Of a stretch of 64,000 nt of DNA, positions 9,880-53,686 are shown piece after piece. Where the stretch lies: positions 19,233 through 83,232 of the forward strand of contig OZ242200.1 of assembly GCA_965205995.1 (NCBI GenBank), given 5' to 3'. A program made the position numbers and the translations under genes. Position 1 is the first letter of the stretch. Each line of letters starts with the position of its first letter. The notes beneath the pieces are model-generated. The model had not been told where the DNA came from. It did not search any database and saw only the letters and a list, made by a program, of their open reading frames with translations. The stretch is from Alphaproteobacteria bacterium. Lineage in GTDB: Bacteria; Pseudomonadota; Alphaproteobacteria; MPNO01.

Positions 9880-10677
9880 ATGCTGAAAATCGTCCTGATC
9901 GGCCGCGGCGCGATCGCCACCGAGGTGCTGGTACATATCCGGCCCGGCGCCGGGGTGAGCGTCACCGGCGCGATCGTCCGTCCCGGCCGGGTGGCCGACG
10001 CCCGTGCCGCCCTGCCGCCGGCGATCGAGGTGGCGAGCGCCATCGGCGATCTCGCGACCGCGCCCGACCTGATCGCCGAATGCGCCGGGCACGCGGCGGT
10101 TGCCGAATACGGCGAGGAGGCGCTGAGGCGCGGCATCGACTTTCTGGCGATTTCCATCGGCGCGCTCGCCGATGCGGATCTCCGCCGCCGGCTGGAGGCC
10201 GCGGCCGCGGCGGGCGGGGGCAAGCTGATCCTGCCCGCCGGCGCGGTCGCCGGCGCCGATGCCCTGGCGGCGGCGCGAATCGGCGGGCTGGAGCGCGTCG
10301 TCTACACCTCGCGCAAGCCGCCGGCGGCGTGGCGCGGAACCCCGGCCGAGGCGGCGCACGACCTCGACGCGCTTGTCGAGGCGACCGTGCTGTTCGAGGG
10401 CCCGGCGGATGCGGCGGCCACGCTCTACCCGCAGAACGCCAACGTGGCCGCCACCATCGCGCTCGCCGGCGCCGGGTTCGACCGCACCGAGGTCCGGCTG
10501 GTCGCCGACCCGGCGGCCGGCGGCAATATCCACACCGTCCGCGCCGAGGGGGCGTTCGGCGCCTTCGACATCGAAATCCGCGGCAAGCCGCTCCCCGACA
10601 ACCCGAAGACCTCGACGCTCGCCGCCCACAGCGTGGTCGCCGAGATCCTGCGCCGCGCCGCCGCAATGGAGATCTAG
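9880..10677 (+). CDS. aspartate dehydrogenase family protein (NadX-like)
   Basis: 265 aa; N-terminal Rossmann IGRGAIA, length and C-terminal region typical of L-aspartate dehydrogenase domain proteins. Confidence 0.65.
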   Translation: MLKIVLIGRGAIATEVLVHIRPGAGVSVTGAIVRPGRVADARAALPPAIEVASAIGDLATAPDLIAECAGHAAVAEYGEEALRRGIDFLAISIGALADADLRRRLEAAAAAGGGKLILPAGAVAGADALAAARIGGLERVVYTSRKPPAAWRGTPAEAAHDLDALVEATVLFEGPADAAATLYPQNANVAATIALAGAGFDRTEVRLVADPAAGGNIHTVRAEGAFGAFDIEIRGKPLPDNPKTSTLAAHSVVAEILRRAAAMEI

Positions 10678-10696
10678 CCGGCCGGTTCGGCCGCCC

Positions 10697-10796
10697 GCCC
10701 TTCGATACGCCCGCTGCGCGGGCTACTCAGGATGAGGGGAATCAAATGTCCTCATCCCGTGTAGCCCCGGACTTGATCCGGGGCGTATCGAGGGAC
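10697..10796. repeat. palindromic intergenic repeat element, copy A (full length, inverted orientation relative to copies C/E)
   Basis: GCCCTTCGATACGCC...GGGCTACTCAGGATGAGGGG-loop-CCTCATCCCGTGTAGCCCCGGACTTGATCCGG...GGCGTATCGAGGGAC; imperfect hairpin with terminal inverted arms; family recurs through window. Confidence 0.8.
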
Positions 10797-10991
10797 TGCC
10801 CCCACCCGGCATTTCGACCGAAGTGCCGCGGGCACGGGCGGGTCCTGCGATCCGCCGATGACGGGTGCGGCTTCGTCTTGCTCGTCCTGCGGGAATAAAT
10901 TGAATTATAAACCGCCCTCAAGTAGAAGACATGCGCTACAGCGCAACCGTGACATGGCCGCATTCCGGTCCAATCGAAGGAGCAGGACAAG

Positions 10992-11714
10992 ATGAACTAT
11001 CGACGTTGGACAGCGGCCGCCGCGGTGAGCGCCGCAATCGTTTCCTTCAGCGGCGCCGGGATGGCCCAGAACCGCGACGGCGGGTTCTATGCGTCGCTGA
11101 CCGGGCTCCTTGTGATCCCGCGGGATTCCGAGTCTTCGGGCAAGAGGGAGGTGCGCGGCGCCAGGCGCGACGTCAGCGTGGAGCTCATGGCAAAAAGCGG
11201 TTTCGGGGTGCTCGCCGCCGCCGGTTACGAGATGTCGTCCAGATTGCGGGCCGAGCTCGAACTGGGCTATCGCGGATACGAATTCGACAAGGCGAAGGTA
11301 AAGGTCGACCCGCCCATAGTGCCCGTTCGAGACAAGGGGCACTGGGTGGACGGACCCGTAGACGGGGACTTCAGTACGTTGAGTGTGATGGCGAATGGCA
11401 TCTACAGCTTCCGGCGGGGCAAGCTCCGCCCCTATGCCGGGCTTGGCGTGGGGTTGGCGCGGCACACCTTGAATCTCGAACGGATAACCTACGAGATAAA
11501 CGGCAGGACAGTCTTGGGGCCGTCCGGTGGCCCGGAAGAAGATTCGACGGTGCTCGCCTACCAGGCCATGGCGGGAATAGGCTATGCGCTGTCCGACAAT
11601 GCGGAGGTCCGACTGGGATACCGCTACTTCGCGACCGGAAAGGCCGATTTCAACGGCGATGAATTCTCCTACGGCACCCACAACTTCGAGATCGGGCTGC
11701 TCTACCGGTTCTGA
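10992..11714 (+). CDS. outer membrane beta-barrel protein, Omp25/Omp31/OmpA-like transmembrane domain family
   Basis: 240 aa; signal peptide ending AGMAQ, alternating amphipathic beta strands, C-terminal GLLYRF; AAGGAG RBS. Confidence 0.8.
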   Translation: MNYRRWTAAAAVSAAIVSFSGAGMAQNRDGGFYASLTGLLVIPRDSESSGKREVRGARRDVSVELMAKSGFGVLAAAGYEMSSRLRAELELGYRGYEFDKAKVKVDPPIVPVRDKGHWVDGPVDGDFSTLSVMANGIYSFRRGKLRPYAGLGVGLARHTLNLERITYEINGRTVLGPSGGPEEDSTVLAYQAMAGIGYALSDNAEVRLGYRYFATGKADFNGDEFSYGTHNFEIGLLYRF

Positions 11715-11718
11715 CCGC

Positions 11719-11779
11719 CGCCCTTCGACACGCGGCGAAGCCTGTCCCGAGCGGCGCCGAGGGGGCCGTATCGAGGGAT
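11719..11779. repeat. palindromic repeat element, short copy B (terminal arms only)
   Basis: GCCCTTCGACACGCGG...CCGTATCGAGGGAT, followed by CCCCCACCCGGCATTTCGACC module. Confidence 0.6.
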
Positions 11780-12002
11780 GGCCCCCACCCGGCATTTCGA
11801 CCGCTCCGCCGTGCCCTGCACGGCTGGCCACCCCCCGCGGCATAACGCCGCGTCGCCGCAAAGAGTGACGCCAAGCCCCGCCGACAGCCGGTAATATATG
11901 TCTTCCCGGGATCGTCCCCGGGGACAGGCAGGACATGTTGGCGCTTGGCGGCCGGATCGGCATTCTCGCCGGATCCATCGCAACCTCAAGGAGAAACCGG
12001 AG

Positions 12003-12704
12003 ATGGACATTCGACGCTGGGCGGTCGTCGCTGCGACGGCCGCGGCAATCGTCTGCCTCGGCGGTACCGGGATGGCCCAGGACCGCGAAGGCGGTTTCTA
12101 TGCGTCGATGACGGGGCTGTTGTCCCTGCCGCGGGATACCCAAAGGAAAGAGGAGCTCGACGGTCACGCCCTGACCCATGGCTATTCCATGAAGAACGGC
12201 ATGGCGTTCGTCGTCGCCGGCGGCTACATCCTGCCCTCCGGGCTGCGGACCGAGCTCGAGCTGGGCTTTCGCCGCACCGAATTCGACAAGGTGCGGAAGA
12301 TCGAAATCCGCGGCCCCGACCGCAACGTGGTGGCCCACGGGGCTCTTCCCATCGACGGGCGGTTCACCACCTTCAGCGTCATGGGCAACGCCACATACGG
12401 CACCGAGCTGGGGAGGTTCCGCCCCTATGTCGGGGGCGGCGTGGGATTGGCGCGGCACCAGGCGAAGATCGACTCGATAGCCTACGAAGCCGGCAGCGAT
12501 CTGCCCGCCGCGTCGATCGGTTTCTCGGAAAATGCGACGGTGTTCGCCTTTCAACTCATGGCGGGGATCGGCTATCCGCTTTCCGAGCAGGCGGAGATGT
12601 GGCTGGGCTATCGCTACTTCGAGACCGCGGACGCCGACTTCCGGGTCAGCGAAATGACCTTCAGCACCCACAATTTCGAGCTCGGGCTGCTCTACAAGTT
12701 CTGA
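12003..12704 (+). CDS. outer membrane beta-barrel protein, Omp25/Omp31-like (tandem paralog)
   Basis: 233 aa; MDIRRWAVVAATAAAIVCLGGTGMAQ signal peptide, same architecture and C-terminal GLLYKF; ORF-track upstream extension rejected in favour of ATG with AAGGAGA RBS. Confidence 0.8.
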   Translation: MDIRRWAVVAATAAAIVCLGGTGMAQDREGGFYASMTGLLSLPRDTQRKEELDGHALTHGYSMKNGMAFVVAGGYILPSGLRTELELGFRRTEFDKVRKIEIRGPDRNVVAHGALPIDGRFTTFSVMGNATYGTELGRFRPYVGGGVGLARHQAKIDSIAYEAGSDLPAASIGFSENATVFAFQLMAGIGYPLSEQAEMWLGYRYFETADADFRVSEMTFSTHNFELGLLYKF

Positions 12705-12713
12705 CCGCGCCGC

Positions 12714-12821
12714 GCCCTTCGATACGCCCCGGATCAAGTCCGGGGCTACCCAGGGTGAGGGTGGGGCGGCCAAAAAAATCCCCCTCATCCCGAGTAGGCC
12801 CGCAGGGCCGTATCGAGGGAC
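12714..12821. repeat. palindromic intergenic repeat element, copy C (full length)
   Basis: GCCCTTCGATACGCCCCGGATCAAGTCCGGGGCTACCCAGGGTGAGGG-loop-CCCTCATCCCGAGTAGGCCCGCAGGGCCGTATCGAGGGAC between convergent OMP and DMT genes. Confidence 0.8.
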
Positions 12822-12831
12822 GCCGCTTGCC

Positions 12832-13689
12832 TCAGCGCCGCGCGATGTAGAGCGCGCTGGCGACGATCGTCACCGCGCCGACCCCGGTCCAGACCGACGG
12901 TATCTCGGCGAACATGTAGAAGCCGATCAGGGCGGCGTAGATCAGCCGCAGGTACTCGAACGGCCCGACGAAGCTCGCCTCGCCGACGCAGAAGCCCTGG
13001 ACGAAGCAGACCATCCCGGCGCAGGTCAGCGCGCCGATCAGTGCCAGCAGCGCGAACTGCCCGGCATCGGGCGGCTGCCAGAGCGCGATGCTCGGCCCGG
13101 CGAACATCGCGATCCCGAAGACGTGGTAGTAGAACAGGATGCGGATCGCGGGCTCGGTGGTCGACAGGCGGCGGATGAAGATGATGCCGAGCGCGAACAG
13201 CACTGCCGCCGCCAGCGCGACCGCCCAGGCGATATCGAACGCCACCCCGCCCGGGCGCACCATCACCAGCACGCCGACGAAGCCGAAAGCGGTCGCCGCC
13301 CATCTTTGCCAGCGCACCGCCTCGCCGAGGATCAGCACCGCGAGCAAGGTGAGGAAGAGCGGGCGGCTGAAGGCGACCGCGGTCGCATCGGCGAGGAACA
13401 GATGGATCACCCCGTAATAGACCGCCGCCTGGCCGACCCCGGCGATCATCGCGCGCGCGAAATGGGTGCCGAGCCGCCTCGTGCGCCAGGTCTCGCGCCC
13501 CGCCTTCACGAACCAGGGCATCAACAGGACCATGCCGATGGCGTAGCGGAACAGCGCCATCTGGATCGGGTGGAAATCGGTGCCGAGCGTCTTCACCACC
13601 GCGTCGTTGGCCGACAGGAACAGCGAGCCCACGAGGACCCACACCGCGCCCTGCGCGTTGCCCGGCAAGGCGAGTATCCGCCCGATCAT
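12832..13689 (-). CDS. DMT family transporter (EamA/RhaT-like)
   Basis: 285 aa; 10 predicted TM helices, two EamA-like halves. Confidence 0.8.
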   Translation of the reverse strand: MIGRILALPGNAQGAVWVLVGSLFLSANDAVVKTLGTDFHPIQMALFRYAIGMVLLMPWFVKAGRETWRTRRLGTHFARAMIAGVGQAAVYYGVIHLFLADATAVAFSRPLFLTLLAVLILGEAVRWQRWAATAFGFVGVLVMVRPGGVAFDIAWAVALAAAVLFALGIIFIRRLSTTEPAIRILFYYHVFGIAMFAGPSIALWQPPDAGQFALLALIGALTCAGMVCFVQGFCVGEASFVGPFEYLRLIYAALIGFYMFAEIPSVWTGVGAVTIVASALYIARR

Positions 13690-14555
13690 GCGGCGCCCGG
13701 CGCGCGGCGCCGCGATTCGGCGCGCATTTGCTGGGCCGAGGCCGCGAAGATCACCGCCGCGCCGAGCCAGGTCCAGAGATCCAGCGCCTCGGCGAAGGCG
13801 AACCAGGCGAGCAGCGCGGTCAGCGGCAGCCGCGCGAAGTCGAAGGGGAAGACCGAAATCGCCTCCGCCGCGCGGTAGCTGTTGGTCATCGCGAACTGGC
13901 CGGCATTGGCGACCAGCGCGGTGACCGCCAGCCAGCCGAGCTGTTCGAGCGTCGGCGTCTGCCAGACGAACAGCGCCATCGCGAAGCTGACCGGCACGGT
14001 ATAGGCGATCATGTAGAACACGATGCGCTCGGTCGGCTCGGTCGCCGACAGCCGCTTCACCAGCACCCAGATCACCGCCATGCCGAGGGCGGCGGCGAGC
14101 GGCATCGAGAACTGCCAGTCAACGTCCTTGAAGCCCGGGCGCAGGATGACCAGCACGCCGAGGAAGCCGACGGCGAGCACCGCCGCGCGGCGCAGATCGA
14201 CCGCCTCGCCGAGGAACAGCATCGCCAGCATCGCGCCGAACAGCGGCGCGGTGAAGGTGAGCGAGACCGCGTCGGCGAGCGGCAGGAAGGCGACCGCGAG
14301 GAAGAACGCGGCCTGGGCCACCGCCGAGGCCATGCCACGGCCGAGGAACAGCCCGTGGCGCTCTGTCCGCAACCCCGCCGTGCCGCGCCTGAGGACGAAG
14401 GGGAGGAGCAGCGCCATGCCGATGATGCTGCGGTAGAACGAGGTCATCAGCGGGTGGAAGCCAATCTCCGCGAGATGGCGGATGCAGGCGGTCATGGCGG
14501 AGAAGAAGGCGGCGGCGAGCAGCATCCAGAGCGCGCCGCGCAGCGCCCCCGGCAT
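13686..14555 (-). CDS. DMT family transporter (EamA-like), tandem paralog 2
   Basis: ORF 13686..14681; start trimmed to Met43 (MPGALRGALWMLL...) giving ~290 aa; 4-nt overlap with downstream paralog. Confidence 0.7.
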   Translation of the reverse strand: MPGALRGALWMLLAAAFFSAMTACIRHLAEIGFHPLMTSFYRSIIGMALLLPFVLRRGTAGLRTERHGLFLGRGMASAVAQAAFFLAVAFLPLADAVSLTFTAPLFGAMLAMLFLGEAVDLRRAAVLAVGFLGVLVILRPGFKDVDWQFSMPLAAALGMAVIWVLVKRLSATEPTERIVFYMIAYTVPVSFAMALFVWQTPTLEQLGWLAVTALVANAGQFAMTNSYRAAEAISVFPFDFARLPLTALLAWFAFAEALDLWTWLGAAVIFAASAQQMRAESRRRAPGAA

Positions 14556-14586
14556 GCGGTCGAACAGATCCCGCAACGCAAGGGCC

Positions 14587-15531
14587 TTACCGGTCACGGC
14601 GCCGCTCGGCCGCCGATTCGCCCCGCGCCAGCAGGATCGAGGATACGCAGATCGCCCCGGCCCCGGCCCACACCCAGACATCCGGGATCTCGGCGAAGAA
14701 CAGGTAGCCTATCAGGGCGGCGATCGGCAGACGGATATAGTCGAACGAAACCACGACGGAGGCATCCGCGGCATGGAAGGCGCGGGCAAGGCAGCGCTGG
14801 CTGAAGGTGCCGAACACGCCGATCGCGACCAGATAGGGAAGGTGGTCGAGGCGCGGCCATTGCCAGACCGCGACCGCCGGCCCGGCGGAGAACAGCAACA
14901 GGAACAGCACCATGTACATCGCCATGGAGTCGGGCGAATCGTAACGCACGATATAGCGCGCCAGGATCGCATGCGTTGCCCCCACCAGCACCACCCCGAG
15001 GGCCAGGAAGACGCCCGGATTGAGCTCCGTGAAGCCGGGGCGGATGATGATCGTTGCGCCGACGATGCCGACCGCGATGGCGATCCAGCGCCTGGCCCGC
15101 GACTTCTCGCCGAGGATCACGATGGCGAGCAGGGTCGCCACCACCGGCCGGATGAAGGTGATCGCCGTGATATCGGCGATCGGCAGCAGGGTGACCGCGT
15201 AGAAGACGCAGAGCAGCCCGGCATAGCTGAGCGCGGTGCGCAGCACGTGGAAGTGGAGCTTGCGGGTCGCCATCGCCGCCACGCCGCGCCGCGCGAGCCA
15301 GGGGGCCATGGCGAGGAGGCCGAAGGCGGCGCGCCAGAAGACCACCAGAAGCACGTGGAGCTCGTCGGTCACCAGCCGCGACAGCGCCATCATCAGCAGG
15401 AAAAGCGTGCCCGCGGAGCTGAGCCAGAACGCGGCGCGCACGGCGCCCGGAAGGCCATGGAAGGAGGCGACGCGGCCGGCAAAATTCAAATCGGTCTTCC
15501 GTCTTGCGGCGAGGGCCCGGGACCCTACCAT
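14587..15531 (-). CDS. DMT family transporter (EamA-like), tandem paralog 3
   Basis: ORF 14587..15834 trimmed to Met102 (MVGSRALAARRK...), ~314 aa; N-terminal 100 aa of ORF is low-complexity and rejected. Confidence 0.65.
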   Translation of the reverse strand: MVGSRALAARRKTDLNFAGRVASFHGLPGAVRAAFWLSSAGTLFLLMMALSRLVTDELHVLLVVFWRAAFGLLAMAPWLARRGVAAMATRKLHFHVLRTALSYAGLLCVFYAVTLLPIADITAITFIRPVVATLLAIVILGEKSRARRWIAIAVGIVGATIIIRPGFTELNPGVFLALGVVLVGATHAILARYIVRYDSPDSMAMYMVLFLLLFSAGPAVAVWQWPRLDHLPYLVAIGVFGTFSQRCLARAFHAADASVVVSFDYIRLPIAALIGYLFFAEIPDVWVWAGAGAICVSSILLARGESAAERRRDR

Positions 15532-15540
15532 GCGGGCGGC

Positions 15541-16374
15541 ATGGCGGGGATGCGCGGGATGGCGGCTGAAAGCGGCGTTGCCGGCAAGACGGTCTGGATC
15601 ACCGGCGCCTCGGGCGGGCTCGGCGAGGCGCTGGCCTACGCCTTCGGCGCGGCCGGGGCGCGGCTGATCCTGTCGGCCCGGCGCGACGGCGAGCTCGCCC
15701 GGGTGGCTGGTGCGGTCGCCGATGCGGGCGGCATCGCGCGGGCGCTGAAGATGGACCTCGCCGATCCCGATTCGATCGCCGCGGCGGCGGCCGAGGTGGC
15801 GCGCCGGGAAGGCAGGGTCGACATCCTGGTCCACAACGCCGGGCAGACCCAGCGGGCGCTGGTCGCCGATGCCGGGATCGACATCTACCGGCGTCTGTTC
15901 GAGGTCAATTTCTTCGGCCCCCTTGCGCTCACCAGGGCGGTGCTGCCGGCGCTCGCCGGAGGCGGGCGGATCGTCGCGATCTCCAGCATCGCCGCCTATT
16001 ACTCATCGCCGTACCGGTCGGGCTACAACGCCTCCAAGAAGGCGCTGCACGGGCTGTTCGACGCGTTCCGGGCGGAAGCGCATCGCGACGGAATTTCCGT
16101 GCTGCTGGTGGTGCTCGGCAGCGTCAGGACCCGGGTCTCGGTCAACGCGCTGCGCGGCGACGGCAGCCGCTACGGGCGGATGGACCCGGCGATGGCGGAA
16201 GGCATGGACCCCGCGCCGGTCGCCCGCAAAATCCTCCGGGCGACGATGGGAAGGCGCGAGGAGATCGCCATCGCGCCGCTCGGCCAGCGCTGGCTGATGT
16301 GGCGCAAGACCTGGTTCCCGCGCCGCGCCGCGCGCGCGGTCCGGCTCCGCCCGCGGGACGGCGACCGTGCTTGA
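15541..16374 (+). CDS. SDR family oxidoreductase
   Basis: C-terminal 278 aa of ORF 14482..16374: GKTVWITGASGGLGEALA, NAGQ, YxxxK (SPYRSGYNASKKAL); start ATG 15541 only ~10 nt from divergent DMT start. Confidence 0.75.
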   Translation: MAGMRGMAAESGVAGKTVWITGASGGLGEALAYAFGAAGARLILSARRDGELARVAGAVADAGGIARALKMDLADPDSIAAAAAEVARREGRVDILVHNAGQTQRALVADAGIDIYRRLFEVNFFGPLALTRAVLPALAGGGRIVAISSIAAYYSSPYRSGYNASKKALHGLFDAFRAEAHRDGISVLLVVLGSVRTRVSVNALRGDGSRYGRMDPAMAEGMDPAPVARKILRATMGRREEIAIAPLGQRWLMWRKTWFPRRAARAVRLRPRDGDRA

Positions 16375-16401
16375 CCAAGGCTTGACCAAGCGCGCCGCGA
16401 C

Positions 16402-16425
16402 GGCCCTTCGATACGCGGCTGCGCT
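16402..16425. repeat. palindromic repeat fragment D (left arm only)
   Basis: GGCCCTTCGATACGCGGCTGCGC downstream of SDR stop. Confidence 0.4.
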
Positions 16426-16503
16426 CTTTTGCCGCGGCTCCATCGCGCGACCGTCGCACGGCGCGGCGCTAGTCTCCGCCCCGGTCAACCGCGCGGAGGG
16501 ACG

Positions 16504-17565
16504 ATGGCGAGTCTCACCCGAATACCCGTGCAACTCGGCGCGGCGGCGATGCTCCTGCTGGCGGCCGCGCTGCCGGCGCAGGGGCAAACCTTCGAGGCGG
16601 CCGCGGCGGCCTACCGCGCGGGTGACTACGACACCGCCCGCCGGGGGTTCCTGGACGCTGCCGAGCGCGGCAACGCCACCGCCCAGCTCATCCTCGGGGT
16701 GATGTATGACGCGGGCAGGGGCGTTCGCCAGGACGACGCCGAGGCCGCCAAATGGTTCCGCCGCGCCGCCGAGCGGGGCAACGCCTACGCCCAGAACAAT
16801 CTCGGGCTCATGCACCGGGACGGAAGGGGCGTCGGCCAGGATATCGACGCGGCGGTGAAGTGGCTGCGCCGCTCCGCCGAGCAGGGCCACGACCGCGCCC
16901 AGAACAATCTCGCGAACCTGTACCTCACCGGGCGAGGCGCTGCCCGGGACTTCCCGGAGGCCGCCAGATGGTTCCGCCGCGCCGCCGAGCAGGGCTTTGT
17001 CCACGCCCAGTACAATCTGGCCGTCATGTACGACCACGGCGACGGTGTCCGGCGCGATCCCGCCGAGGCCGCGAAGTGGCTGCGCCGCGCTGCCGGGCAG
17101 GGCCACGCCCAGGCGCCTTTCAATCTTGGCAACATGTACTGGAAAGGCGATGGCGTCCGACCGGATTCCGCCGAGGCCGTCAAGTGGTACCGGCTCGGCG
17201 CCGAGCGGGGCGACGCCAAGGCGCAGATCGCCCTCGCCAATTTGTACCGCGTCGGCGAGGGGGTGGGCGAAGATCTTGCCGAGGCCGCGAACTGGTATCG
17301 CCGCGCCGCCGAGCAGGGCGAACACAGGGCCCAAATCGTGATCGCGTTCATGTACGAGACCGCGAGAGGGGTCCGCCGGAACCTGGTCGAGGCGCACAAA
17401 TGGTACACGCTCGCGCTCACCCGGGCGGATGCCCTGGATCGGGAGATGCGCGGTTTCGCCCTGGAAGGGCGGGTCCGGGTGGAGAAGCATATGCGGGCCG
17501 CCGAACTCGACCGGGCCCGGCAGCTGGCGCGGGAGTGGCGGGTCCGCAGGAACGGGGCACGGTAG
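16504..17565 (+). CDS. Sel1-repeat (TPR-like) protein with signal peptide
   Basis: ~8 consecutive ~36-aa Sel1 repeats (AQxxLGxMYxxGxGVxxDxxEAxKWxRRAAEQG); N-terminal hydrophobic signal AAMLLLAAALPAQGQ. Confidence 0.8.
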   Translation: MASLTRIPVQLGAAAMLLLAAALPAQGQTFEAAAAAYRAGDYDTARRGFLDAAERGNATAQLILGVMYDAGRGVRQDDAEAAKWFRRAAERGNAYAQNNLGLMHRDGRGVGQDIDAAVKWLRRSAEQGHDRAQNNLANLYLTGRGAARDFPEAARWFRRAAEQGFVHAQYNLAVMYDHGDGVRRDPAEAAKWLRRAAGQGHAQAPFNLGNMYWKGDGVRPDSAEAVKWYRLGAERGDAKAQIALANLYRVGEGVGEDLAEAANWYRRAAEQGEHRAQIVIAFMYETARGVRRNLVEAHKWYTLALTRADALDREMRGFALEGRVRVEKHMRAAELDRARQLAREWRVRRNGAR

Positions 17566-17591
17566 CCGGGCGCCGGTCTCCGCGCCTGCCG

Positions 17592-17692
17592 GCCCTTCGA
17601 TACGCCCCGGATCAAGTCCGGGGCTACTCAGGGCGAGGGAATTTCTTTGGCCTCATCCCGAGTAGGTCTCGAAGGGACCGTATCGAGGAACC
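17592..17692. repeat. palindromic intergenic repeat element, copy E (full length)
   Basis: GCCCTTCGATACGCCCCGGATCAAGTCCGGGGCTACTCAGGGCGAGGG-loop-CCTCATCCCGAGTAGGTCTCGAAGGGACCGTATCGAGGAAC between convergent Sel1 and hydrolase genes. Confidence 0.8.
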
Positions 17693-17698
17693 CGCCGG

Positions 17699-28491: not shown

Positions 28492-28523
28492 CGGCGCCCT
28501 CTTCGATGCGTGGCTTCCGCCCC

Positions 28524-32142: not shown

Positions 32143-32170
32143 TTGACTGGCTCTTGCGAGTCCCTATAAT
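32143..32170 (+). promoter_or_regulatory. near-consensus sigma70-type promoter TTGACT-16nt-TATAAT upstream of rpsM region
   Basis: TTGACTggctcttgcgagtcccTATAAT read directly; followed by AGGAGG RBS and GTG at 32238. Confidence 0.5.
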
Positions 32171-32328
32171 CCGGCCACCCGAATGGGACATCCATTTTCG
32201 GAACCCCGGACTTCATCCCGATGCAGGAGGCCGCGTCGTGGCGCGAATAGCTGGCGTTAACCTGCCTAATCCGGCCACCCGAATGGGACATCCATTTTCG
32301 GCTGGACTTCATCCCGCAAGGCCGCGTC

Positions 32329-32357
<29 letters not shown>
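32167..32357. repeat. imperfect tandem duplication (100 nt + 91 nt) of rpsM leader + first 10 codons
   Basis: TAATCCGGCCACCCGAATGGGACATCCATTTTCGG...GACTTCATCCCG...CCGCGTCGTGGCGCGAATAGCTGGCGTTAACCTGCC occurs twice head-to-tail (32167-32266, 32267-32357); copy 1 retains AGGAGG RBS, copy 2 has it degraded. Confidence 0.8.
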
Positions 32358-32746
<389 letters not shown>

Positions 32747-45229: not shown

Positions 45230-45319
45230 CCCGCTCGACCAACAGGGCCGCTACTCAGGATGAGGGGTGAAAGAACCGCCTCATCCCGAGTAGGTCCCCA
45301 AGGGACCGTATCGAGGGAC
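45230..45319. repeat. palindromic repeat element copy F (degenerate left arm) in divergent UbiD/LLM intergenic region
   Basis: GGCCGCTACTCAGGATGAGGGG-loop-CCTCATCCCGAGTAGGTCCCCAAGGGACCGTATCGAGGGAC, followed by CCCCACCCGGCATTGGACC module. Confidence 0.7.
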
Positions 45320-45417
45320 GCACCCCGCCGGCCCCACCCGGCATTGGACCTTTGCCCGGCCGGGCGGGCTGGGGTAGCGTTTCCGGACAGCAGATTCATT
45401 TTCGGGGTCGAGGCGCG

Positions 45418-46755: not shown

Positions 46756-47798
46756 AGCGTATCCAGCTTGAGCAGGTCGCGGGCATTCCCCTCGTAGATG
46801 CGCGCGCGCTCCGCGGGATCGATGTCGAGCGCGTCGACCGCGTCTATGGTGCCGCGGATGAACAGCGCCCCGCCTTCGGGATCGAACGGCGCGTCGGTGG
46901 CGAACAGGCTGCGGCCGGCGCCGAAGAACGCAAAGCCGCATTCGGTTGCAGGCCGCGACCCGTTCAACGCCGTGTCGCCGTAGAGCATCCGGTAGTACTC
47001 GATCGGCTGTTTCGCGAGCCCGGCGCGGGCGGCGAGCGGGTTGTTGCCGACCCCGCCCTCGAAGAGCTGCTCGAAGCCGATGGCGATCTTTTCCGCGAAG
47101 AAGGGGATCATCCCGCCCATATGGTGGGTGACGATCTTGAGGTCCGGCAGGGCGTCGAACAGGCCGGAGAAAATCAGCCGCGCCATGCAGGCGCTGGTCT
47201 CGTAGGGCCAGCCGAAGGTGAACCAGATCTCGTGCTCCGACAGCTCCTCGGTCACATAGTCGGGGTGGTTGGGCCCACGGATCGGATGCACCCAGACCGG
47301 AAGGTCGTAGCCCGCGAGGCACTCGAACAGGGGGCGGAACGGGGCCGCGCTGATCGGCCTGCCCAGCACGTTGGTGAAGATTTGCACGCCGCGCGCGCCG
47401 AGCTCGTCGATCGCGATTTGCACGCCGCGCGCGCCGAGCTCGTCGATCGCGCGCTCCGCTTCGGCCACCGCGCCGTCCGGATCGTTCAGCGCGACCGAGG
47501 CGGTGAAGGCGGGGAAGCGGTCGGGGTAGCGGGTGCAGAGCTCGGCCATCCCGTCATTGGCGATCCGCGCGAGCGCCGCGCTTTCGGCCGGCGTGCCGAG
47601 GGCTTCCAGCGGCGGGTTGGCGAGCGACAGCACCTGCCGGTAGTCCGCGAACCCGTCCATCATGCGGACCCTCGCCTCCACATCGGTCAGCGTCGGCAGC
47701 AGCGGGTATCGTGCGAGCATCCGCTTGTCGGGGACGATCTCCTTCAGCCGCGCGAAATATTCGGGCGGCAGGATGTGGTTGAAGATGTCGAGTTTCAT
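46752..47798 (-). CDS. amidohydrolase-2 family metal-dependent decarboxylase/hydrolase (ACMSD/LigW/PicC-like family)
   Basis: 348 aa; MKLDIFNHILPPEY start (H-x-H context), His/Asp metal ligands (HHMGG, DAPFD); contains in-frame duplicated 12 aa AIDELGARGVQI x2. Confidence 0.8.
   Translation of the reverse strand: MKLDIFNHILPPEYFARLKEIVPDKRMLARYPLLPTLTDVEARVRMMDGFADYRQVLSLANPPLEALGTPAESAALARIANDGMAELCTRYPDRFPAFTASVALNDPDGAVAEAERAIDELGARGVQIAIDELGARGVQIFTNVLGRPISAAPFRPLFECLAGYDLPVWVHPIRGPNHPDYVTEELSEHEIWFTFGWPYETSACMARLIFSGLFDALPDLKIVTHHMGGMIPFFAEKIAIGFEQLFEGGVGNNPLAARAGLAKQPIEYYRMLYGDTALNGSRPATECGFAFFGAGRSLFATDAPFDPEGGALFIRGTIDAVDALDIDPAERARIYEGNARDLLKLDTL
47379..47450. repeat. perfect 36-bp tandem duplication inside amidohydrolase gene (in-frame, 12 aa)
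   Basis: GATTTGCACGCCGCGCGCGCCGAGCTCGTCGATCGC x2 read directly. Confidence 0.9.
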
Positions 47799-53272: not shown

Positions 53273-53686
53273 ATGTCGCCGATGGAATCGTATACTGCGG
53301 TTGTCCTTGTCACCGTACTCATCGCCTTGGTTCTGTTTATCGGGGTTCCCGCGGTTGCGGTCTACCGCGAGAAAAGCGACCTGACGCTGGGCCGAAGAGA
53401 TTTCGTGCTCTGGGTCGTGCTGTACCTGATCGTGCTGCCGGTCGTTGCAAACGTCGTCGCGAAGATCATGCCCAGCCTGGCGGTCGACGGGGTGCTGGTC
53501 CTCGTTGGGCTCTGCATCGCCTATATTTTCTACCAGCGTGTGGTGCGCCGCGCACGGGACGCCGGCAAGGGCAAGCGCATCGCCTATGTCGGCGCGATTC
53601 CCCTCGCCAACCTGGTTGTCTTCGTCATTCTGATGGTGACGCGAAGCGCCCAGCCGGGCGACACCGCGCAAGCCGCCGAGGCCTGA
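53273..53686 (+). CDS. DUF805-like small inner membrane protein
   Basis: 137 aa; 3-4 TM helices with conserved RRxRDxGKG motif (RVVRRARDAGKGKR); alternative starts 53219 or 53282. Confidence 0.55.
   Translation: MSPMESYTAVVLVTVLIALVLFIGVPAVAVYREKSDLTLGRRDFVLWVVLYLIVLPVVANVVAKIMPSLAVDGVLVLVGLCIAYIFYQRVVRRARDAGKGKRIAYVGAIPLANLVVFVILMVTRSAQPGDTAQAAEA

Follow-up and report, generated by a model that had tools for sequence, protein, structure and literature searches.

GTAG-tagged inverted-dimer repeats of a Defluviicoccus-like alphaproteobacterium: a probable REP/REPIN-type mobile family with a predicted four-way-junction fold

Classical REPs conserve their hairpin stem, and the prevailing view holds that REPIN-RAYT systems are inherited vertically. 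Among the described systems, the closest to the repeats considered here are the GTAG-tagged REPs (Di Nocera, De Gregorio and Rocco 2013, PMC3733652) and the REPINs (Bertels and Rainey 2011, PMC3116915). In the former survey, GTAG-tagged REPs are defined by a GTAG at the end of a short GC stem-loop, with a stem of 5-13 bp and a loop of 2-20 nt, and they occur as singlets, as head-head dimers with the tag outside and as tail-tail dimers with the tag inside. The same survey reports CGTC-tagged REPs of alphaproteobacteria without a dedicated transposase (PMC3733652).

In the present study, we analysed a stretch of 64,000 nt (the window) with a G+C content of 68.9%, whose host is a Defluviicoccus-like alphaproteobacterium. 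It carries an intergenic repeat in four copies of about 90-108 nt (A, C, E and F), in one copy with an internal deletion (B) and as three relics of a terminal arm (D, I and J), a density of five copies and three relics per 64 kb. We consider it probable that these repeats are a REP/REPIN/BIME-like family of mobile elements, made of GTAG-tagged REPs arranged as inverted dimers. This kind of element (REP/BIME/REPIN) is well known and involves no new kind of biology. The family itself appears undescribed, and no consensus like it is given in the supplements of the GTAG/CGTC survey (PMC3733652), to which the comparison with the numbered GTAG families was confined. The four-way-junction form and the permutation by lineage also appear undescribed. 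Four motif strings searched in full-text literature returned unrelated PCR primers only, the literature on sponge symbionts and repetitive extragenic palindromic sequences gave nothing relevant, and a distant-mode search of PLSDB plasmid records gave no match.

The repeats were recovered from the window in several ways. Allowing one mismatch at most, we found 13 occurrences of the terminal 11-mer CCYTCGATACG where 3.2 would be expected, a count that none of 100 shuffles reached. For the core 15-mer, there are eight occurrences and an expectation of 0.9. By repeat finding, A and E have 93-nt arms that are 80% complementary, and C and E are 96% identical across 48 nt. A covariance model made from 15 copies of other genomes together with A, C and E, and run over the window with filters off, gave scores of 90.1 bits for C, 76.7 for E, 75.1 for A, 45.1 for F and 24.1 (E 2e-4) for B, the remaining matches in the window being noise. 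Reading of the intervals confirmed the positions given for A, C, E and F in the preliminary description of this DNA, whose figure of hundreds of copies genome-wide is an extrapolation; the weak traces that it reported near 28494 and 53690 were noise in the covariance model and motif checks. Comparison with Rfam, which it had suggested, returned no match at the gathering score in the window and only chance-level matches (E >= 1.9) in E-value mode over 10600-12900.

The unit of the family is about 45 nt long and reads CCTCATCCYGA-GTAG, a GC hairpin of 4-8 bp and CGTATCGARGG, and the window copies are inverted tail-tail dimers of this unit with GTAG inside. In a full copy, the outer arm CCCTTCGATACG is followed by a small GC hairpin, the central arm CTACTCAGGRTGAGG, a variable loop of 11-20 nt, the central arm CCTCATCCYGAGTAG, a second small GC hairpin and the outer arm CGTATCGAGGG. 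The small hairpins have stems of 4-8 bp and loops of 3-5 nt and are short imperfect palindromes as in REPs. The REP tag is also in place, GTAG standing immediately before the hairpin in seven of seven window units; elsewhere, GAGTAG immediately precedes it in 48 full copies, which were found with a scan pattern that itself contained GAGTAG. In total, we counted 47 tail-tail dimers, 36 head-head dimers and 25 singlets, the mixture of singlets and dimers that marks REPs and REPINs. The earlier label 'REP-like' was therefore apt, as the halves consist of GTAG and a short GC hairpin, occur as singlets and inverted dimers, and are extragenic.

Copy A (10697-10796, minus strand) is a full tail-tail dimer of the inverted REP units 10699-10737 and 10750-10794, placed 19 nt past the stop of an aspartate dehydrogenase gene. 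Its covariance-model scores on the two strands are 75.1 and 74.5 bits, and its predicted RNA fold has -61.5 kcal/mol (z -7.2). Judged by the side bearing CCCCGGATCAAGTCCGGGG, A is opposite in orientation to C and E, as had been noticed before. Copy B (11720-11779, plus strand), 5 nt past the OMP1 stop, belongs to an OMP segmental duplication and is an internally deleted dimer, in which the outer arms and both relic small hairpins are kept and the central stem is gone. Copy C (12714-12821, plus strand) is a full dimer flanked by the convergent genes OMP2 and EamA, whose stops are 9 and 10 nt away. Its left side consists of outer arm 12716-12726, hairpin 12727-12745, central arm 12746-12760 and loop 12761-12782, and its right side of central arm 12783-12797 with GTAG at its end, hairpin 12798-12808 and outer arm 12809-12819. 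Fragment D (16403-16438, plus strand), 28 nt past the stop of a short-chain dehydrogenase gene and upstream of a Sel1-repeat gene, comprises the left outer arm GCCCTTCGATACG and a relic hairpin. Copy E (17592-17692, plus strand) is again a full dimer, with its units at 17594-17638 and 17651-17689; the Sel1-repeat and alpha/beta-hydrolase genes on its two sides are convergent, and their stops are 26 and 6 nt away. Copy F (45230-45319, plus strand) lies inside a 233-nt divergent intergenic region between UbiD and luciferase-like monooxygenase genes and was previously taken for full-length; it retains the right unit (45279-45317) and the central arm of the left one, whose hairpin and outer arm have decayed. 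Fragment I (56952-56982, plus strand) is a decayed singlet with the right outer arm CCGTATCGAGGGAC after a weak hairpin, and this arm begins 16 nt past a 3-hydroxyisobutyrate dehydrogenase stop, a spacing kept in seven strain contigs. Fragment J (60905-60928, minus strand), a small hairpin with an outer arm (GCGTATCGAAGGGC), occupies the 30-nt gap between a convergent hydantoinase B gene and a 101-aa gene, 10 nt past the stop. B, D, I and J had been listed together as arm-only fragments; D, I and J are exact terminal arms, each adjoining a relic hairpin, but B keeps both arms and both small hairpins.

Some features of the surrounding DNA were recorded on the way. The 13-mer CCCACCCGGCATT is present in three exact copies, just 3' of A (10801-10813, plus strand), after B (11784-11796) and after F (45333-45345), each a few bases 3' of the element and upstream of a plus-strand gene. 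A and B have it in common through the OMP segmental duplication, the occurrence at F is independent, and it is absent beside elements in the other genomes examined. The OMP genes (10992-11714 and 11898-12704) are tandem outer-membrane beta-barrel paralogs with 70-76% DNA identity, and their number is strain-variable, contig L133 having one; in L130 and L131, synteny breaks inside OMP1 at about position 11514 of the window and continues into a Calx-beta gene. On the minus strand, 12832-15500 holds three tandem EamA-family transporter paralogs with conserved segments of 52-59 nt that are 884 and 901 nt apart. In the Sel1-repeat gene (16429-17565), six tandem 108-nt units (16741-17388) encode the Sel1 repeats of a 378-aa eukaryote-like repeat protein (Pfam E 4e-63). 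The intergenic repeats themselves translate to spurious peptides, for example 'PSRREGPYRGT'.

The fold of the complete element is a predicted four-way junction, made of the outer stem, a small hairpin, the long central hairpin and a second small hairpin. As RNA, both strands are predicted to fold in this manner with -45 to -64 kcal/mol (z -4.2 to -7.2); the junction is likewise predicted with DNA parameters, and a permuted dimer gives a permuted four-way junction. The preliminary description had seen an imperfect hairpin with outer and inner arms; the arms are present, but it missed the two extra hairpins of the predicted junction and the logic of unit and dimer. Covariation was examined in an alignment of 112 matches fitted to the model, in which about 56 elements of the window and of 46 loci are each represented by both strands. 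In this alignment, 94.6% of cells are paired and the two long stems are essentially sequence-constant. The small hairpins show compensatory changes in four of five pairs each and are 97.6-97.8% paired. An independent MAFFT/RNAalifold run on 18 copies led to the same structure.

For the genomic placement, flanking genes in the window were called by codon-position G+C and checked with Pfam. Seven of the eight window copies or relics lie 5-28 nt past a stop codon (A 19, B 5, C 9, D 28, E 26, I 16 and J 10 nt), and C, E and J stand between convergent genes. The earlier statement that most copies lie just after stops, often between convergent genes, is correct; F is between divergent genes. With rough gene calls in all genomes, the contexts of 57 elements were 18 convergent, 27 tandem, 7 divergent, 1 possibly intragenic and 4 at a locus edge; by the same rough calls, 52 of the 53 classifiable elements are intergenic. 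Most elements across the genomes are less than 30 nt from a stop codon.

This position invites the explanation that the repeats are selected RNA structures at gene 3' ends, which would protect mRNA from 3' exonucleases or act in factor-dependent termination or attenuation, and would be kept for that function. The dominance of convergent and tandem contexts across genomes, the very stable predicted folds and the covariation that maintains the small hairpins are all consistent with it. Several observations argue in the other direction, and we regard such a function as an unlikely origin of the family. In tandem contexts, the orientation is the same as transcription in 17 elements and opposite in 10, so that there is no bias, and the two strands fold about equally well. 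Seven of 52 elements, F included, lie between divergent genes, no Rfam family is matched, and presence or absence varies among near-identical strains in which the flanking genes are unchanged. Because of the missing orientation bias and the strain-level presence and absence, stabilisation of 3' ends is unlikely to be the primary cause; a putative mRNA-stabiliser role is possible as a side effect of mobile REP dimers.

Three further candidates were tried and rejected. The terminators that the preliminary description had proposed find no support as intrinsic ones: within 10000-18500, no terminator-like match coincides with an element, and the DNA on the 3' side of the elements is GC-rich and lacks a T-run (U-tract). 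A tRNA-derived element was rejected because ARAGORN gave neither a tRNA nor a tmRNA for the window. An integron attC site was rejected by inspection, since the GTTRRRY core is missing and the elements have core metabolic genes of mixed orientation around them.

The turnover of the elements between strains was observed. Public metagenome assemblies sample the population of the window well. Many ENA contigs with 99.2-99.96% identity to the window, including a circular one of 6.9 Mb (ERZ26694896:ctg118111), encode its L17 ribosomal protein and a hydrolase, and a sister clade has 96-98% identity. Proteins named Defluviicoccus sp. are members of the 90%-identity cluster of L17. At the msrA site, contig L121 has a complete element 7 nt past the stop, where the window and three other contigs are empty. 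At the SnoaL/cupin site, the copy number is 0 in the window and L121, 1 in L361, 1.5 in L358 and 2 in L359 and L360; the SnoaL-like and cupin genes overlap by 14 nt in the element-free window and L121, and a piece of the gene 3' end has been duplicated together with the element. In L133, a singlet replaces A, OMP1 and B of the window, and C is internally deleted. Copies E, F, I and J are unchanged in every strain contig compared there (six contigs for E, three for F). The elements therefore show the insertion and excision polymorphism at orthologous sites that is typical of REPINs and mobile elements, and these filled, empty and variant sites among 96-99.9% identical strains bear out the earlier suggestion of a non-autonomous mobile element. 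In practical terms, elements that mark differences among such strains are relevant to strain typing, assembly breaks and spurious ORFs.

Within the SnoaL/cupin arrays, L359 (17101-17311) and L360 (17116-17329) hold orthologous hairpin variants that differ by a double compensatory change (CGGCTTCGCCG vs CCGCTTCGCGG), and the duplication in this array is joined at the microhomology GCGAGCGC, common to the hairpin and the 3' end of the upstream gene. Strains also differ at places without the repeat. In the rpsM 5' region (32167-32500), there are several perfect direct repeats of 35-49 nt, 61-100 nt apart, and the window is about 146 nt longer here than all strain contigs examined, which is either a local duplication or an assembly artefact. 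A 36-nt tandem duplication (47361-47432, 81% identical) adds 12 residues to an amidohydrolase gene and is absent from L136-L138. An indel of about 100 nt (53353-53453) relative to one strain contig, L260, affects the N-terminus of a DUF805-like gene and has no relation to the repeats.

The boundaries of the elements bear on the question of how they move. The preliminary description had named the family MITE-like and proposed target-site duplications at copy ends as a check. In 29 elements, flanking direct repeats had a mean length of 1.62 nt against 1.86 nt after shuffling, with 151 of 200 shuffles at or above the observed value, and the ends thus carry no duplication longer than in shuffles. 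Insertion into pre-existing palindromes was not significant either (60 of 300 shuffles reach the observed value). One filled site is longer by 20 nt, and this addition ends in an imperfect copy (12/15) of the left flank and restores the stop codon of the neighbouring gene; we regarded this as a local oddity. Classical MITEs, that is, deletion derivatives of a DDE-transposase IS mobilised via their terminal inverted repeats, would explain the terminal inverted arms of 11-12 bp, the size of about 100 nt, the intergenic location and the many copies. However, target-site duplication is not above chance, no IS bounded by CCCTTCGATACG/CGTATCGAGGG and no transposase with those ends is found in 2.8 Mb, and the unit of about 45 nt occurs as singlets and in permuted form, neither of which a TIR-defined element would yield. 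We therefore find the strict MITE explanation scarcely credible, and the reading as REP-type inverted dimers is retained in the following.

The family extends beyond the window, and its unit is abundant in two unrelated lineages that prefer different dimers. Alphaproteobacterial loci (G+C of at least 0.65) hold 44 tail-tail dimers, 2 head-head dimers and 9 singlets, and several of the MAGs of that set are named Defluviicoccus or Rhodospirillaceae. A Nitrospinota-labelled lineage of lower G+C (0.59-0.65, about 61%) holds 32 head-head dimers, 1 tail-tail dimer and 12 singlets. This head-head group includes MAGs named Nitrospinota together with two complete 'bacterium' chromosomes, OZ244799 and OY843592; an ABC ATPase of OZ244799 shares 75% identity with a 'Nitrospinota bacterium' protein and about 57% with the next named relative, and OY843592 has a copy of it that is 95% identical. 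The head-head dimer is a circularly permuted form of the tail-tail dimer, and the outer arms are identical in the two lineages. This lineage-specific permutation fits the published model of dimer origin, and the choice between permuted forms by lineage offers a clean natural test of the circular-intermediate model for REP dimers.

That the REP system, together with its structure-specific enzyme, moved horizontally between phyla that share hosts, with the four-way junction in place of a simple hairpin as the recognised substrate, is a quite doubtful proposal at present. If true, such spread of a REP system across phyla would contrast with the view of vertical inheritance. Record names (Spongia_Bin9, RHO and COS bins) suggest a sponge association for many of the carrier MAGs; Rhopaloeides odorabile and Coscinoderma matthewsi were sampled in a large study of sponge MAGs, in which Nitrospinota were obtained (PMC8163846). 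In any case, a well-defined REP/REPIN-type family is added to the little-studied, uncultured Defluviicoccus-like and Nitrospinota-labelled MAG lineages.

The constancy of the arms has also to be considered at the DNA level. As proposed for E. coli BIMEs, the repeats could be putative binding or structural sites for gyrase, IHF or other nucleoid proteins, and the cruciform-prone palindromes would then organise supercoiling domains. A palindrome that is symmetric on both strands, arms that are invariant across genomes and even phyla, and a stable predicted ssDNA or cruciform fold would suit such sites. Against this, no binding protein is identifiable from the sequence, site occupancy varies among strains, and the published survey argues that uneven species distribution excludes a general chromosomal role for REPs (PMC3733652). 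A DNA-site function as the reason for the family is thus decidedly improbable in our opinion.

Outside the two lineages, metagenomic contigs show other outer arms around a core of GAGTAG, hairpin and CGTATCGA, and Microvirga zambiensis (L032), of the Rhizobiales, has a cousin repeat with the order CCTCATCCTGAGGAG, hairpin, CGTCTCGAAGG. Because of these variant arms and the Microvirga cousin, we assign the family to a broad superfamily. A metagenome scan with the pattern GAGTAG-N(9-25)-CGTATCGA returned mostly chance matches and a few other REP families that share only the core, and a scan of viral contigs gave weak partial matches only. In two of the soil or other metagenome contigs, L174 (1955-2321) and L184 (1469-1703), there are arrays of a different REP family with CATGCTGGTCGAGTAG, a hairpin and CGTATCGAGACC, which has only the GAGTAG...CGTATCGA core in common with the family of the window.

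A REPIN-RAYT system includes a RAYT gene (Y1/HUH transposase) of its own, usually in single copy and with REPs at its sides. Such an enzyme was sought in the window and a further 2.8 Mb, all of it DNA near elements. The E. coli RayT query has 99% identity to proteins named RayT; tblastn with it gave nothing, and a regular expression for the HUH and catalytic-tyrosine (Y...NP) motifs had no match. An HMM of 108 diverse RAYT representatives found none among six-frame ORFs of 2.0 Mb of loci and the window (best E 0.13), and viral contigs that add another 0.8 Mb gave none either. Between neighbouring copies, the ORFs proved to be ordinary metabolic genes, and no IS or transposase with element ends occurs in the 2.8 Mb sampled. 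Since no RAYT was found in 2.8 Mb of element-bearing DNA, the mobilising enzyme can only be inferred; since the searches covered DNA near elements, a single-copy RAYT gene may be located elsewhere.

With these points in mind, we infer the following route. In its most likely mode of spread, present or past, the dimer would serve as the single-stranded hairpin substrate of a structure-specific HUH/Y1 (RAYT-type) transposase that would be encoded once elsewhere in the genome, and such a HUH/Y1 route would leave no target-site duplication. The two inverted units would pair arm to arm, so that either DNA strand or an RNA copy may form the four-way junction. Copies would persist where harm is small, just past stop codons, and would then decay to singlets and arm relics and may seed local duplications and deletions on the way. 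Stabilisation of upstream mRNA 3' ends, if any, would be a side effect.

Compared with known systems, the MITEs Correia, ERIC, RUP and Nezha are of similar size and are likewise intergenic, with terminal inverted repeats and a strong hairpin; unlike them, the family of the window is without target-site duplication, shows no parent IS in the DNA sampled and has a reusable half-unit. E. coli BIMEs also combine REP units in alternating orientation with other short motifs, lie at gene 3' ends and form local arrays, as seen here with 1.5-2 copies in L358-L360, but there is no sequence similarity between them and the present family, in which the binding of IHF, DNA gyrase or Pol I that also marks BIMEs would be putative. 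With the CGTC-tagged REPs of alphaproteobacteria, the family has in common the alphaproteobacterial hosts, the predominance of dimers and the lack of a known dedicated transposase (PMC3733652). The Microvirga cousin has a near-identical layout and near-identical arms (CCTCATCC-GAG-AG, hairpin, CGT-TCGA-GG) and differs by GGAG in place of GTAG and CGTC in place of CGTA; by our own reading, it is a putative member of the CGTC class. The closest likeness is to the GTAG-tagged REPs (Di Nocera, De Gregorio and Rocco 2013, PMC3733652) and the REPINs (Bertels and Rainey 2011, PMC3116915), which also have GTAG abutting a GC stem-loop, are extragenic, occur as singlets and both inverted dimers that form a single large fold, have variable spacers, vary among strains and make no target-site duplication. 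Unlike these, the dimer of the window family is predicted to fold as a four-way junction, and no flanked RAYT gene was found in 2.8 Mb. Furthermore, this family conserves its 11-nt segments, CCTCATCCYGA before GTAG and CGTATCGARGG after the hairpin, and lets its stems vary, so that the pattern of conservation is reversed with respect to classical REPs, a point against the proposed reading: the hairpins are variable and the flanking arms invariant.
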